Positions 18,456 through 24,539 of a DNA stretch of 64,000 nucleotides are shown here, one piece after another (the first letter of the stretch is position 1; each line of letters opens with the position of its first letter). A program made the translations under genes and the position numbers. Below the pieces are notes generated by a model, which was not told the origin of the DNA, did not search any database, and saw only the letters and a program-made list of their open reading frames with translations. The stretch lies in the NCBI RefSeq assembly GCF_044324875.1, contig NZ_CP172185.1; one strand, 5' to 3'. Origin of the DNA: Escherichia coli. GTDB taxonomy: Bacteria > Pseudomonadota > Gammaproteobacteria > Enterobacterales > Enterobacteriaceae.

Positions 18456-19535
18456 TTACTGCATCATGACCTCACGAACGAAATCTTTTTTGAGCTGTGT
18501 ACTGTACGCTTTGCCATAAAACTCCACCGTGGGCTCCGGGATCTCATTCAGATCCGGACGGAGCTGTTTGTTCATCGGCGTGGAGCCGAAGACTTTACTC
18601 AGTGCATGTTGCGTTTCAGGCTGAATCAGCCAGTTGAGGAATAAGCGTGATGCCGCCGGATGTGGGCTGTTGGCGGCAATGGCAGCGATGTTACCGCCGC
18701 CAGGCATGCCAAACTCCGGTACGTAAAATTTCAGCCGCGAATTGATAGCCCCGGTTTTTTGTAGTCCGACAAGATGATCTTCCCAGGATGGTGTCAGCAT
18801 CAGCTCGCCGTCATTCAGGCGTGTCAGACTATCAGCACCGGAGGCCGTGCGGGTAATTTTGTCCTTATTAGCGGCAAACCACTGCCAGCCTTTCTGCCAG
18901 TTTTTCACCACTGCCGGGTCAACGCTCTCCGCTTCGCTGTTAAACGTGTCGCCCTGAGTAGTGACGATGCGCTGGATAAAGGCTTCCCCAGCGCCGCCGT
19001 TGTTCGGGTCGTTATAGCCGAACTTTTTCGGGTTGGCGTCGATAAAGCTCTGCAACTGCTCCAGCGTTTGTGGCAGCGCCCGGTCACCCATCTGCTGCGG
19101 GTCGTAAGCAAATCCGGTCTGGTTGCCCCAGAACGCCACGGCATAACCCTGGGTGTCAACGTTCTGAATCTGGTGAATGGCGTCGCCATAGCCCGGCAAA
19201 TCGTCCACCTTCGCCAGCGCTTTCGCTCCCATTGCCACTGGCAGTTGCGCAACAGACAAGGCGATAACATCTATTTTACCTTTTTTTTTCCCCGCTTCTG
19301 CCAGCAACTTGTTCACGTTTCCGTCGATATTCCCTTCCGGGATGCGCACCTTAACACCGTACTGCTGCTCAAAATCCTTCACAAAGCTGCGCCACTGCGG
19401 CTGTAAGTACCAGACGTTAAAGGTCACGCTGCCCTCTTTTTTCGCTTGGGCAATCAGGTCGGGGCTATCCGCCGCCGTTGCCAGCGAGCTGCACAGCAGG
19501 CCGCCCGCCAGAATCATCACTGTTTTTTTCATCAC
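18456..19535 (-). CDS. ABC transporter periplasmic substrate-binding protein (PotD/PotF-type)
   Basis: 359 aa, signal peptide, last gene of a four-gene ABC operon on the minus strand. Confidence 0.75.
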   Translation of the reverse strand: MMKKTVMILAGGLLCSSLATAADSPDLIAQAKKEGSVTFNVWYLQPQWRSFVKDFEQQYGVKVRIPEGNIDGNVNKLLAEAGKKKGKIDVIALSVAQLPVAMGAKALAKVDDLPGYGDAIHQIQNVDTQGYAVAFWGNQTGFAYDPQQMGDRALPQTLEQLQSFIDANPKKFGYNDPNNGGAGEAFIQRIVTTQGDTFNSEAESVDPAVVKNWQKGWQWFAANKDKITRTASGADSLTRLNDGELMLTPSWEDHLVGLQKTGAINSRLKFYVPEFGMPGGGNIAAIAANSPHPAASRLFLNWLIQPETQHALSKVFGSTPMNKQLRPDLNEIPEPTVEFYGKAYSTQLKKDFVREVMMQ

Positions 19536-19553
19536 ATTATCTCCTGTAAAAGG

Positions 19554-20438
19554 TCAGGCTTTTCCCGTGGATTGCGACAGATAGTTCCCCTTCAGCAACT
19601 TCTCAATGATGACCATCAGGATGACATTGGGGATCACCAGAATCATCGACACCACCGCCGCATCCGGGCGGACGAAGGAGTAGCCAAGGAAAGAGTAAAG
19701 AATGGTCGGAACGGTGATAAAGTCCGGCGCGCCCAGCACGTATGAGATGCTGAACTCTTCCAGGCTTCGCACCAGACAAAAAATCAGCGCCGCCAGGAAG
19801 CTCGGTTTCAGCAGCGGCAGATAGGCATTGCAGAAGGTGTCCCACGCGCCGGAGCCCAGGTCGCGGCTGGCGTCGATCAGATCCTGCGGCACCGACTTAA
19901 ACCCCGCAGACATAATGCGGATCGAATAGGGCAGCGTCAGTACCGTATGGCCGATAACAATGCTGATAAACGCGTTGTCGATATTGAGGTTGATCAGCAT
20001 GGCGCTGAAAAAAATCCCGATCAGCATCCCCGGCATCACCAGCGGGATCAGCGTCAGCATCTCCGCCACCGCCTTACCGCGAAAGGTCATGCGCCCGAAG
20101 GCATACGCGGTGGGTAGCGACAGCAGCAGGCTGGCGACCGCTACCGCAGGCGCAATGGTGTAGCTGTTGAACAGCGCCTCGGAAAGCGAAGTCTTTTCCC
20201 ATACCAGCAGCCAGCGGCTGAACGACAGCACGGGCGGGAAGATATCCGGGTAGCTCCACGGATGGGCCGGGTCAACCAGCGACCAGAGGATCGCCATGCC
20301 GAACGGCATGCCCAGCCAGATCAGATTAGCGACCACGAAGAAGATCAGCGAAATCGTCACCACCCGGCAACCGTTGGCAGTGTGGCTCATTTGACCTCTC
20401 CTTTGCGGGTGGCGAACGGGGTAATCAGTGTGGCTCAT
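19554..20438 (-). CDS. ABC transporter permease (second permease); N-terminus carries a 16-aa duplication
   Basis: 294 aa; MSHTDYPVRHPQRRGQ-MSHTANGC…; the second Met is likely the ancestral start. Start overlaps upstream stop. Confidence 0.75.
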   Translation of the reverse strand: MSHTDYPVRHPQRRGQMSHTANGCRVVTISLIFFVVANLIWLGMPFGMAILWSLVDPAHPWSYPDIFPPVLSFSRWLLVWEKTSLSEALFNSYTIAPAVAVASLLLSLPTAYAFGRMTFRGKAVAEMLTLIPLVMPGMLIGIFFSAMLINLNIDNAFISIVIGHTVLTLPYSIRIMSAGFKSVPQDLIDASRDLGSGAWDTFCNAYLPLLKPSFLAALIFCLVRSLEEFSISYVLGAPDFITVPTILYSFLGYSFVRPDAAVVSMILVIPNVILMVIIEKLLKGNYLSQSTGKA

Positions 20439-20476
20439 TTGACCTCTCCTTTGCGGGTGGCGAACGGGGTAATCAG
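20381..20476. repeat. Perfect 48-bp tandem duplication across the permease-permease gene junction
   Basis: TGTGGCTCATTTGACCTCTCCTTTGCGGGTGGCGAACGGGGTAATCAG occurs twice in tandem (20381-20428, 20429-20476), bounded by the short direct repeat CAGTGTGGC. Confidence 0.9.
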
Positions 20477-22365: not shown

Positions 22366-22580
22366 GAGTCTCTCTTCTATCGGTTAAAAAGATGATTATT
22401 AAATTTACATACTAAACATTAAATTTATGTGACACAGATCCTTAAAGCTAAAAAATGATCTAAATATCAAATTAAAAGCATATAAAACAATGGATTAACC
22501 ATAAAATAACAAAAACATCTTTCACATTTAAATTTAAGTAGTAAAGTTAATTACCATCTTACATTCGAGAGGAAAAGAAG

Positions 22581-23411
22581 ATGGCGTTTAACTTTCACCG
22601 GGCGGCAGAGGGGATCGTGCTGGCCAACAGCCACCGAGGTTATTCCAGCTGCGCGCCGGAGAACACATTCCCGGCCTTTGAAGCCGCCCGCCTGGCGGGA
22701 ACCCACTGTATTGAAATCGATATCCACCTGACGGCGGATAACCAACTGGTGGTCACGCACGATCACCGTATCGACCGGGTATCCACCGGACACGGATTTG
22801 TGGAGCAGATGACGTACCCGCAGCTGCTGGCGTGCGACTTTGGCGTGAAATACCATCCGTCGTTTGCCGGAACGCGCATCCCCTTGCTGGCGGACGTGCT
22901 GCGCTGGGCGGTGGAAAACAGCATGGGGCTGATTGTTGAGGTCAAACAGCGCAACCGCCATGACGAGTTTGTGGCGGCGCTGGTCGCACTGCTGCATGAG
23001 CATCTGGATGCCCTCGGCCATATCCAGTTGCTGGGCTTCAACCATGTGCTGATCAACCGGGTGAAGGCGCAAATCCCGCAACTGGCGTTACAGGTGGTGA
23101 CGCTGGAGCGCTACAATAACCAGCTTGCGGCGGTACAGCAGTCCAATGCCGGATGCGTCTGCTTTGAGTTCGAGTTCGCCCATATCGACGACCTGCGGGC
23201 CTACAAAAATGCCGGACTGGGCGTGCGGATGTATCTGCATGAAATGAAAAACGGCATGACGCCGCTGGAGCAGTACGACTATAAATTCGGCTGTGACAGT
23301 CGTCCGGTGATTATCGGCTGGATGCAGGCGGGGCTGATTGATATGCTCAGCCACGATGATATTCCGTATTTGCAGGGACTGATTGAAGAAGCAGGCCTGC
23401 GCTGGAACTAG
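22581..23411 (+). CDS. Glycerophosphodiester phosphodiesterase (GDPD family)
   Basis: 276 aa, …HRGYSSCAPENTFPAFEAA…IEIDIHLTADNQLVVTHD…; transcribed divergently from the ABC operon. Confidence 0.8.
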   Translation: MAFNFHRAAEGIVLANSHRGYSSCAPENTFPAFEAARLAGTHCIEIDIHLTADNQLVVTHDHRIDRVSTGHGFVEQMTYPQLLACDFGVKYHPSFAGTRIPLLADVLRWAVENSMGLIVEVKQRNRHDEFVAALVALLHEHLDALGHIQLLGFNHVLINRVKAQIPQLALQVVTLERYNNQLAAVQQSNAGCVCFEFEFAHIDDLRAYKNAGLGVRMYLHEMKNGMTPLEQYDYKFGCDSRPVIIGWMQAGLIDMLSHDDIPYLQGLIEEAGLRWN

Positions 23412-23426
23412 AAAAATAAGGACACC

Positions 23427-24539
23427 ATGAACGCCCACTCTGAACGCCTTGAACTACGTGGTTCGCAGCGCCTGCTGCTGGAACTGATCCGTCTCCACGC
23501 CCCGGTGACGCGGGCTGAACTGGCACGGCTGTCGGGACTGACGGCGGGGGCGATCACCCAACAGTGCCGAGAGCTGATGTTCTCCGGCCTGGTGGTGGAA
23601 GGGGAGCGCAATACCGGGCAGCGCGGCCAGCCGTCGCTGCCGTTGCGCCTTAACCCCGGCGGCGGTTGTGCTATCGGGTTGTCGTTCAGTCCCGGTTTTA
23701 TCGATATGACGGTGGTCGATCTCAGTGGTCGCCAGCTGCTGTCGCTTTGCGAAGCACATCAGGAGAATCAGCCACTGGAGGCCTCTCTCGCGCAGATCAA
23801 AACCTTGGTGGAGAAAATGCTGAAAAAGCGCCAGCTCCAGCACGCACGTATTCTCGGCATTGGCTATGCAGTGCCCGGATTTCTGAAAGCGGATGGTCGC
23901 AAGCGCCACAGCGTACCGTGGCTGGAGAGCTGGCGTGAGGTAGATCTCCAGCAGGCGTTTGCCGACAACCTGCCGTGGCCGACGTGGGTGGAAAATAATG
24001 CCAACGCCTCGGCGGTAGGTGAACTGTACAGCGGCAAATGGAATGCGTACAGCGATCTAACCTTTATCGACCTTGGCTACGGTATCGGCGCGGGTATTAT
24101 CTCCGGGAATAAAATGCTACGCGGCGGGTTCTGCAATGCCGGTGAAGTCGGGATGGCGTTTCCATCCGGTACACCGCGCCCGTCGTATAAGGATTTGCTT
24201 GCCACACTGGAGCGTGAAGGATTCAGTGAAACTAAGCTACCGGAGCTGATAGCCGGGCAGCACCCACTGCTGGAAAGCTGGTTTGAACGCTGTCGTGGCC
24301 AGGTGGAGCAGACGCTCTTCAGCTGTGTGCAGTGGGTAGACCCGCAAATCATCGTACTCGGTGGCGCGATGCCGAAACCGATTATCAGTCGTCTGGTGCA
24401 GGAACTGAATCAACTGATGGAAGCCTGCCTCGATCCCAACCGCCCCAGAGTGAAGTTAGCTGCCTCTTCGATGGGAGCACAGAGTGCGTCATGCGGCGCG
24501 GCGATGCTCCCGTTGTATAAGGTGATTAATAATGGATAA
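23427..24539 (+). CDS. ROK-family transcriptional regulator (NagC/Mlc-like)
   Basis: N-terminal HTH (…VTRAELARLSGLTAGAITQQCREL…) followed by a ROK sugar-kinase-like domain. Confidence 0.75.
   Translation: MNAHSERLELRGSQRLLLELIRLHAPVTRAELARLSGLTAGAITQQCRELMFSGLVVEGERNTGQRGQPSLPLRLNPGGGCAIGLSFSPGFIDMTVVDLSGRQLLSLCEAHQENQPLEASLAQIKTLVEKMLKKRQLQHARILGIGYAVPGFLKADGRKRHSVPWLESWREVDLQQAFADNLPWPTWVENNANASAVGELYSGKWNAYSDLTFIDLGYGIGAGIISGNKMLRGGFCNAGEVGMAFPSGTPRPSYKDLLATLEREGFSETKLPELIAGQHPLLESWFERCRGQVEQTLFSCVQWVDPQIIVLGGAMPKPIISRLVQELNQLMEACLDPNRPRVKLAASSMGAQSASCGAAMLPLYKVINNG

Follow-up and report, generated by a model that had tools for sequence, protein, structure and literature searches.

A 64,000-nucleotide stretch of the Escherichia coli contig NZ_CP172185.1 (assembly GCF_044324875.1), hereafter the window, contains six adjacent genes for an ATP-binding cassette (ABC) importer, a glycerophosphodiester phosphodiesterase (GDPD) and a regulator of the ROK family. 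We consider it probable, at roughly 0.55, that these genes constitute a self-contained mobile cassette, by which a small phosphodiester, most likely a sugar diester, would be imported and cleaved inside the cell under the control of the ROK protein.

An earlier reading of the same stretch (the original prediction) had described six open reading frames (ORFs) arranged as divergent ABC and GDPD/ROK operons on either side of a 215-bp AT-rich region. ORF calls, Pfam matches and base composition bear out this description, each ORF lying where it had been placed (Table 1). The ATPase and first permease genes as well as the two permease genes overlap by 4 bp (ATGA), and the GDPD and ROK genes are separated by 15 bp, which fits two divergent operons. 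The GC content is 55-59% in the cassette genes and 24.2% in the spacer between the operons, while the immediate flanks have 38-40%; the cassette genes are therefore compositionally foreign to their surroundings. The divergent layout is shared by approx. 30 loci of Enterobacterales, Vibrionaceae and Pasteurellaceae, with spacers of 190-245 bp and a GC fraction of 0.17-0.29. Because layout, spacer length and AT-richness recur in this way, the adjacency of the GDPD-ROK pair and the importer is not due to chance.

Conserved linkage of importer, phosphodiesterase and regulator

Gene neighbourhoods were mapped for 80 loci encoding relatives of the periplasmic binding protein, with one genome per species, and linkage was counted for the 56 loci that have at least 3 kb of flanking sequence on both sides, a phosphodiesterase gene being scored within 4.5 kb. 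A phosphodiesterase gene is found beside the importer in 43 of these 56 loci, a ROK gene in 41 and both in 38; at least two of the 13 phosphodiesterase-negative loci do hold GDPD-like ORFs that were overlooked by the clustering. The phosphodiesterases are of different types: AccF-like GDPDs (30 loci), 2H phosphodiesterases of the DUF1868 family (12 loci), GDPDs with a DUF4996 domain (4 loci) and large secreted GDPDs (3 loci). The replacement of non-homologous phosphodiesterase types by each other in a conserved context, a classic sign of a required reaction, points to phosphodiester cleavage as what these loci have in common, and it is the chief argument for import of a phosphodiester followed by its cleavage. 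The conserved linkage supports the view that importer, phosphodiesterase and ROK protein act as one functional unit, and comparative genomics thus indicates the coordinated uptake and cleavage of a phosphodiester under ROK control that the original prediction had suggested.

The layout of the window, with GDPD and ROK genes diverging from the genes for ATPase, two permeases and binding protein, is typical of Enterobacterales and of many Vibrio and Photobacterium species, and some Vibrio loci contain a DUF1868 2H phosphodiesterase gene in addition. In Pasteurellaceae, the GDPD gene diverges from the ABC genes, which are followed by the ROK gene. In Rhizobiales, the ROK gene diverges from the ABC genes and a downstream 2H gene, optionally followed by a gene of the inositol monophosphatase (IMPase) family, and in Pantoea it diverges from IMPase, ABC, GDPD and porin genes. 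Rhodobacterales and spirochaetes have ABC genes followed by a GDPD-DUF4996 gene and optionally an IMPase gene, and in Haemophilus and Aggregatibacter the ABC genes stand alone.

The phosphodiesterase and its probable substrates

The GDPD of the window passes the PF03009 model with 95 bits against a cut-off of 23.6, and the motifs HRG, ENT, E-x-D, HD and E-x-K are intact in its translation. Alignments to the structures 2pz0 and 2otd show the catalytic and metal-binding residues as H18-R19-G20, E45-x-D47, H60-D61 and E120-x-K122. The protein has no signal peptide, whereas the binding protein carries a Sec signal peptide, ending ATA/AD, so that residues 23-359 form the predicted mature protein. 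Judged from its sequence, the GDPD looks active and cytoplasmic.

In BLASTP comparisons, it aligns end-to-end with Agrobacterium AccF (116 bits, 31% identity), over 205 amino acids with E. coli UgpQ (75 bits, 27% identity), and in the catalytic core only with AvrBs2 of Xanthomonas (30 bits). Among 72,556 plasmids, its best matches after the ortholog in Vibrio are AccF proteins encoded in the acc operon of Agrobacterium Ti plasmids. By these measures, AccF is the closest characterised relative. The orthogroup of the window GDPD is sharply bounded, scores falling from 243 to 108 bits, and its membership in the AccF clade is not claimed.

AccF cleaves agrocinopines after their import by an ABC transporter (PMC4526662, PMC7356202). 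In Xanthomonas, AvrBs2, a synthetase derived from a GDPD, makes xanthosan, a cyclic di-galactose-phosphate, which enters through XanT and is hydrolysed to galactose-1-phosphate (Gal-1-P) by XanP, a 2H phosphoesterase; the ROK regulator XanR is encoded in the xanthosan cluster (Wang et al., Science 2025, PMC12807533). An AvrBs2 peptide from published primers (PMC3228805) was turned into a degenerate DNA pattern, and a search with this pattern recovered a Xanthomonas-type avrBs2-xanR-xanT-xanP cluster in a metagenome (L091, contig JAAIGE0100138411.1). The XanP encoded there (L091 6718-7503) has the residues H99/T101 and H204/S206, identical to the published ones (PMC12807533). It falls in PF08975 (DUF1868) with 112 bits and matches 19 of the 19 locus-linked 2H proteins over nearly their full length, with 26-32% identity. 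This assignment was not found stated in PMC12807533, nor was a paper mentioning DUF1868 found in the literature searched; it gives the domain its first biochemical anchor. In Pseudomonas gingeri, a DUF1868 gene adjoins genes for TonB-ExbBD, a TonB-dependent receptor and a sugar-type ABC system.

Further clues come from genes beside related loci. An IMPase-family gene, whose product is 30-37% identical to AccG, is present in 10-11 of them, 10 being the count for the 56 loci considered above. In three lineages, five loci altogether have galT immediately next to the cassette, in two different positions, a phosphomannomutase/phosphoglucomutase (PMM/PGM) gene is found in loci of the Vibrio coralliilyticus group, and the Pasteurella multocida locus contains a gene for a Cof-type sugar phosphatase. 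All three enzymes act on sugar phosphates, GalT and PMM/PGM specifically on hexose-1-phosphates. Because genes for GalT, PMM/PGM or an AccG-like phosphatase adjoin related loci, the product of cleavage is expected to be a sugar-1-phosphate. The likeliest substrate class would be sugar phosphodiesters from which, as with agrocinopines or xanthosan, a hexose-1-phosphate is released, and the chance that the substrate is such a hexose-1-phosphate diester is about even. Of the glycerophosphodiester substrate envisaged in the original prediction, the phosphodiester part is supported, while likeness to AccF, AccG, XanR and XanP and the linkage of galT and PMM/PGM favour a sugar type over a classical glycerophospho-alcohol.

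Several points weigh against the proposed import and cleavage of a sugar diester. The importer loci of Haemophilus and Aggregatibacter have no linked phosphodiesterase or ROK gene, and the E. coli cassette itself is devoid of galT, PMM, IMPase and DUF1868 genes, the link to hexose-1-phosphates being transferred from relatives with binding proteins of just 39-51% identity. In a neighbour-joining tree, the clade of the window GDPD and AccF are sisters with a bootstrap value of only 45%, and UgpQ is joined by the GDPDs from Pantoea/Rhizobium-type loci (bootstrap 91%), which fits glycerophosphodiesters. Homology does not reveal the ligand of the binding protein, as none of its close relatives is characterised, and its invariant Trp and Asp/Glu residues would suit an amine-bearing ligand too, so that sugar and amine head groups are indistinguishable. 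In Xanthomonas, a xanR knockout has no virulence phenotype, and xanT/xanP are not induced by xanthosan (PMC12807533). Finally, neither a paper on these loci nor experimental data on any member of the family were found in the literature searched.

The strongest alternative, less likely but to be taken seriously, is a second Ugp-like system, in which the importer would take up glycerophosphocholine, glycerophosphoethanolamine, glycerophosphoglycerol or glycerophosphoinositol, and the GDPD would provide phosphate or carbon by setting glycerol-3-phosphate and the alcohol free. In that case, the cassette would be a routine addition to the known system. The family membership and intact catalytic motifs of the GDPD agree with this, as does the grouping of the Pantoea/Rhizobium-type enzymes with UgpQ, and the Trp-rich, acidic residues of the binding protein could hold a choline or ethanolamine head group. 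The IMPase genes would suit glycerophosphoinositol, as would a myo-inositol (iol) cluster in E. coli strain 135, an isolate with the same cassette. The UgpQ equivalog model NF006989 is the top NCBIfam match of the GDPD, but its score of 107 bits is far from the cut-off of 264, and AccF is the better match in direct comparison. Furthermore, ROK regulators are sugar-responsive, and glycerol-3-phosphate requires neither IMPase nor GalT nor PMM, yet genes for these enzymes recur by the locus. The binding protein shows no relationship to E. coli UgpB (BLASTP 18.5 bits, E=0.34), as had been foreseen, and reading the spacer by eye revealed no convincing Pho box.

Importer, regulator and control region

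The best NCBIfam matches of the ATPase are PhnT2, UgpC and PotA, all under their cut-offs (PotA 329 vs. 482 bits), and its identity over 73 related loci is 51-97%. The two permeases best match the PotB model (first permease, 80 bits, cut-off 348) and the PotC model (second permease, 81.5 bits, cut-off 326). A perfect 48-bp tandem duplication (2.2 copies, 20378-20482) covers the stop codon of the first and the start of the second permease gene. The duplicated segment comprises the Shine-Dalgarno sequence together with the ATG and the beginning of the coding sequence (MSHT...) and thereby creates an alternative start, so that its outcome is either a 16-amino-acid N-terminal extension or a 48-bp spacer. 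For the identical gene of strain 135, the RefSeq start is at the second ATG (20390), giving 278 amino acids. The duplication is found in three strains (H1-H3), whose 6.4-kb region aligns as a single piece; in most other carriers, the region is 48 bp shorter and is matched by megablast in two pieces.

At E<=1e-10, Gamma- and Alphaproteobacteria yield 390 homologues of the binding protein. Its identity is 91% to the Salmonella and 78% to the Yersinia pestis protein, about 48% to those of Pasteurellaceae and Vibrio and about 40% to those of Rhizobiales. The family shares six invariant Trp residues and a number of invariant Asp, Glu, Arg and His residues; among the invariant positions are W42, Y43, R49, W136, N138, D176, W213, W217, W219, S232, D235, R239, D242, W251, D253 and H254. 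The top NCBIfam match is PRK11622 with 61 bits (cut-off 203), no equivalog model matches, and the best hit among PDB sequences has E=2.8e-5. A Foldseek search of PDB with the AlphaFold2 model (mean confidence score pLDDT 85.5) returned generic relatives alone, with 11-19% identity. NCBIfam, PDB and Foldseek were also considered as a guide to the ligand, and this approach was abandoned because they gave only generic cluster-D relatives (Fe3+, PotD, PhnS and unknowns). The PotD/PotF-likeness of the binding protein, as first described, therefore holds at the superfamily level only, since no PotD or PotF model in NCBIfam matches at E<=1e-5. Within the PotD/PhnS/Fe3+ 'cluster D' fold, the protein represents a separate family that is as yet uncharacterised, and the importer as a whole is, by sequence comparison, of the broad PotD/PhnS/Fe3+/thiamine type and orthologous to none of these.

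An ordinary transporter for polyamines (PotABCD/PotFGHI) or 2-aminoethylphosphonate, beside which the GDPD-ROK pair would be functionally unrelated, is highly improbable. The best model matches of the permeases and the ATPase, the PotD and PhnS structures among the Foldseek relatives and the label 'putative spermidine/putrescine' that some sources give to homologues point in this direction, but all these matches are far under curated cut-offs, and the binding protein fits no PotD/PotF model. Moreover, the linkage to phosphodiesterase and ROK genes is kept from Enterobacterales to Rhizobiales, and neither phnW/phnX nor genes of polyamine metabolism were seen in the loci. The least probable alternative is that the GDPD acts as a synthase like AvrBs2 or agrocinopine synthase and makes a sugar phosphodiester, the transporter having another role: AvrBs2-like proteins are reported in Salmonella, Pasteurella and Providencia, taxa that have this locus (PMC12807533), but the window GDPD resembles AvrBs2 in the core only, aligns end-to-end with the hydrolase AccF, is a bare 276-amino-acid domain without secretion or translocation signal, and has a binding-protein-dependent importer encoded alongside it, a design known from uptake alone.

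The ROK protein is more similar to the Xanthomonas-type XanR (134 bits in BLASTP, 28% identity over 366 of 370 amino acids) than to Mlc (63-66 bits in phmmer, by which PDB entry 7rhe scores 105 bits). It does not contain the zinc motif GH...CxCGxxGCxE; the corresponding segment reads NAGEVGMAFPSGTPRPSY, with no cysteines and with GM in place of the GH of Mlc. The alignment with Mlc ends at this site, and 7rhe has the same variant as the window protein. In addition, ENNANA stands in place of the kinase Asp motif, and the ATP motif is also lost. Since both the zinc motif and the kinase Asp/ATP motifs are missing, the protein is a regulator of an atypical ROK subfamily, closer in sequence to XanR than to Mlc.

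When eight Enterobacterales were compared, the spacer proved to hold two conserved blocks with three copies of a 10-bp palindrome of the TTAAATTTAA type. The copies TTAAATTTAC and TTAAATTTAT are 20 bp apart and lie 34-63 bp upstream of the ATPase start codon, and a third, perfect copy precedes the GDPD gene (Table 1). All three positions are kept in Escherichia, Salmonella and Buttiauxella, and at least one in Providencia and Proteus. The motif has 33 matches in 30 spacers, compared to 6.2 +/- 2.6 in shuffled sequences, and three of its five matches in the window (with at most one mismatch) fall within the 215-bp spacer. It is not conserved in the spacers of Vibrio, where the ROK protein is only about 32% identical, and the operator prediction is therefore restricted to Enterobacterales. 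We infer that the three palindromes are ROK operators overlapping both promoters, on the model of NagC, a ROK repressor that binds several palindromic AT-rich operators in the short nagE-nagB intergenic region, with DNA looping. Read by eye, a conserved TGTCACAT block of the spacer resembles one half-site for CRP, and a consensus promoter scan gave a single weak match.

For the sugar-diester cassette, the following sequence of events can be proposed. The binding protein would capture a small organic phosphodiester in the periplasm, and the ABC transporter, presumably working inward, would bring it into the cell intact. The cytoplasmic AccF-like GDPD, which is more likely a hydrolase than a synthase, would then split the diester into an alcohol and a phosphomonoester, and the products would pass into general metabolism, in E. 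coli through the chromosomal gal genes and sugar-phosphate enzymes. The ROK protein would act as a local repressor at the three TTAAATTTAA palindromes, two by the transporter promoter and one by the GDPD promoter, perhaps with formation of a DNA loop like that of NagC, and would leave the DNA on sensing the substrate or a sugar-type product.

Island setting, ecological implications and known systems

The cassette is rare in E. coli. The GDPD-ROK pair is present in 23 of 5,426 complete genomes; 21 of the 23 copies are at least 99.8% identical and come, according to the host/source field, mostly from chickens, with two black kites and two humans, and the remaining two genomes, both from humans, carry an allele that is only 75% identical. 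The 6.4-kb cassette region is 100% identical to that of the chicken isolate strain 135, and collinearity with this strain is lost outside roughly 17.8-32 kb of the window. The cassette is set in a mosaic island rich in insertion sequences (IS), with genes for sodC, an AbgT-type transporter, an S6 (SPATE) autotransporter, IS66 and Mu-type transposases and a P4-type integrase. Since an orthologous cassette lies on a conjugative plasmid of Vibrio scophthalmi, the cassette is mobile; it is a rare, horizontally acquired element found in poultry-associated E. coli.

Table 1. Features of the window, followed by extra GDPD genes directly beside related cassettes, the latter given with locus number and position in that locus
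Feature	Position	Strand	Remarks
Periplasmic binding protein, 359 amino acids	18456-19535	minus	SBP_bac_8, 110 bits
ABC permease, distantly PotC-like, 294 amino acids from first ATG	19554-20438	minus	PF00528
ABC permease, distantly PotB-like, 288 amino acids	20435-21301	minus	PF00528
ABC ATP-binding subunit, 355 amino acids	21298-22365	minus	PF00005, 125 bits; gene 1 of importer operon
Divergent control region, 215 bp	22366-22580	none	common to both operons
Operator-like palindrome TTAAATTTAC	22399-22408		candidate ROK site
Operator-like palindrome TTAAATTTAT	22419-22428		candidate ROK site
Third palindrome, perfect TTAAATTTAA	22528-22537		candidate ROK site; 44-53 bp upstream of GDPD start codon
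Predicted cytoplasmic AccF-like GDPD phosphodiesterase, 276 amino acids	22581-23411	plus	PF03009, 95 bits
ROK regulator, 370 amino acids	23427-24539	plus	PF00480, 86 bits, and HTH_24; N-terminal winged helix
PhoX alkaline phosphatase	39458-41437		PF05787, 553 bits
Sulfatase/EptA-like putative phosphoethanolamine transferase	43668-45170
Extra GDPD, Proteus myxofaciens, 649 amino acids	L007 9204-11153		visible signal peptide
Extra GDPD, Providencia, about 518-617 amino acids	L048 826-2382
Extra GDPD, Phyllobacterium, 772 amino acids	L065 10722-13040		visible signal peptide
Extra GDPD, V. scophthalmi plasmid, 348 amino acids	L085 15644-16690		visible signal peptide
Extra GDPD, Yersinia pestis, 291 amino acids	L082 3853-4728

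The original prediction had seen a wider phosphate-ester theme in the window, in which a PhoX-like phosphatase and a phosphoethanolamine-transferase-like protein would take part. Both genes exist, but a functional link to the cassette is not supported. They are 15-19 kb away, beyond the autotransporter and the IS66/Mu-type transposase genes, and are absent from the equivalent region of strain 135, which has a near-identical cassette, and from every related locus examined. Their co-location with the cassette is treated as incidental island mosaicism. Together with a P4-type integrase gene that follows them (46828-48093), they appear to form a separate island module. In strain 135, the island that holds the cassette also contains, about 27 kb away from it, a complete catabolic iol cluster that includes an ABC transporter (NZ_CP080260.1 2750324-2764580, L086). 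This cluster bears on the idea of glycerophosphoinositol as substrate, but its linkage to the cassette is not conserved, and a functional tie to it, as to PhoX or the EptA-like protein, was rejected for this reason.

Other features of the window were also noted. Just past the ROK gene, an AT-rich segment (24540-24900, 38% GC) marks the right edge of the cassette; the annotation of strain 135 has a YebF-family pseudogene here, interrupted by a stop codon. Within the block common to both strains, a gene for an AbgT-family transporter (26037-27596) is followed downstream by that for a serine-protease autotransporter of 1,274 amino acids (27908-31732), whose strain 135 counterpart bears the annotation S6 family peptidase. 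ORF pairs of equal size (332 amino acids, and 548 amino acids with rve and Mu-transposase C-terminal domains) at 32705-35123 and 61233-63651 suggest two copies of one insertion element, which would bracket about 26 kb including the PhoX, EptA-like and integrase genes. A cluster of envelope-modification genes on the minus strand (9278-12475), encoding a YaiO beta-barrel, a hexapeptide acyltransferase, a GT2 glycosyltransferase and a PIG-L deacetylase, adjoins the gene for a trimeric autotransporter with YadA anchor (5495-7096).

The 64-kb window contains no second GDPD gene and encodes neither XanP (DUF1868) nor XanT nor an AvrBs2-like synthase. Since the window GDPD itself is not AvrBs2-like, E. 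coli appears to carry a consumer module only. In several other taxa, extra GDPD-domain genes lie right beside the cassette (Table 1), and their products might generate the transported diester outside the cell. The large GDPDs of Proteus, Providencia and Phyllobacterium score about 60 bits against AvrBs2, barely above other GDPDs; AvrBs2 was not among the 150 hits when representatives were searched exhaustively with the Proteus protein, and the second GDPD of the Vibrio plasmid has no clear similarity to the agrocinopine synthase of the Ti plasmid.

To our knowledge, dedicated uptake and cleavage of sugar phosphodiesters has so far been documented only in plant pathogens, for agrocinopines in Agrobacterium and, since 2025, for xanthosan in Xanthomonas. 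The authors of the xanthosan study proposed similar strategies in animal pathogens and described no uptake system for these (PMC12807533). It is tempting, if speculative, to view the cassette as an animal-microbiome counterpart of the 'utilisation' half of agrocinopine and xanthosan feeding, providing a dedicated ABC route, based on a binding-protein family not recognised before, for a hexose-1-phosphate diester; we hold this idea tentatively and do not think it likely. The diester may come from other microbes or be extracted from the host, and the secreted or injected GDPD-type enzymes encoded beside the locus in Proteus, Providencia, Phyllobacterium and on the Vibrio plasmid may be among its producers. 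If true, poultry E. coli, equipped with the consumer module only, would scavenge a private nutrient in the gut, and sugar-phosphodiester nutrition, a strategy of plant pathogens, would also be one of animal-associated Enterobacterales, Vibrionaceae and Pasteurellaceae. The cassette may thus confer a niche-specific nutrient trait on poultry-associated E. coli, for which concrete genes and candidate substrates are now at hand. More broadly, it belongs to a widespread, uncharacterised ABC-importer family, which in Salmonella, Yersinia pestis, Klebsiella, Providencia, Pasteurella, Vibrio and Rhizobiales is consistently wired to proteins of the AccF, AccG, XanP and XanR types.

Among characterised systems, UgpBAEC-UgpQ of E. 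coli follows the same logic of an ABC importer combined with a cytoplasmic GDPD. Unlike in the Ugp system, the binding protein of the cassette is unrelated to UgpB, the transporter is of another subfamily, the genes form two divergent operons instead of one, and the predicted control is by a ROK protein instead of PhoB. A ROK protein encoded within divergent operons with multiple palindromic AT-rich sites is also characteristic of NagC/Mlc-controlled nagE-nagBACD. However, the similarity to NagC/Mlc is low (63-74 bits), the zinc cysteines are absent, and the operators of the cassette, which are predicted, have a different sequence.

The acc system of Agrobacterium (AccR-AccABCDE-AccF-AccG) likewise combines a binding-protein-dependent ABC importer with a cytoplasmic GDPD, and the whole cassette is mobile and under local regulation. 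Its transporter belongs to the oligopeptide/opine type and has a 512-amino-acid binding protein and two ATPases, whereas the E. coli cassette encodes a PotD/PhnS-type transporter with one ATPase. AccR is a DeoR-type regulator, in contrast to the ROK protein of the cassette, and AccG has no IMPase counterpart in the E. coli cassette, AccG-like genes being found in related loci only. The hosts also differ, acc occurring in plant-tumour bacteria and the cassette in animal-associated bacteria.

With the xan system of Xanthomonas, the cassette shares a ROK protein of the XanR subfamily, matched over its full length and without zinc motif; the XanP family DUF1868 is linked to 19 loci of the same importer family, and the galT linkage in relatives fits the Gal-1-P product of XanP. 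Xanthosan is taken up via a TonB-dependent outer-membrane receptor, and XanP has a Tat (twin-arginine translocation) signal and is periplasmic. In the cassette, as read from its genes, the diester would instead cross the inner membrane by the ABC system and be cut in the cytoplasm, and the E. coli enzyme is a GDPD, not a 2H protein. The cassette thus resembles Ugp, Acc and Xan in its logic and is a member of none of them. It combines an importer family that would be new to a phosphodiester role with an enzyme and a regulator that are distant relatives of AccF and XanR.

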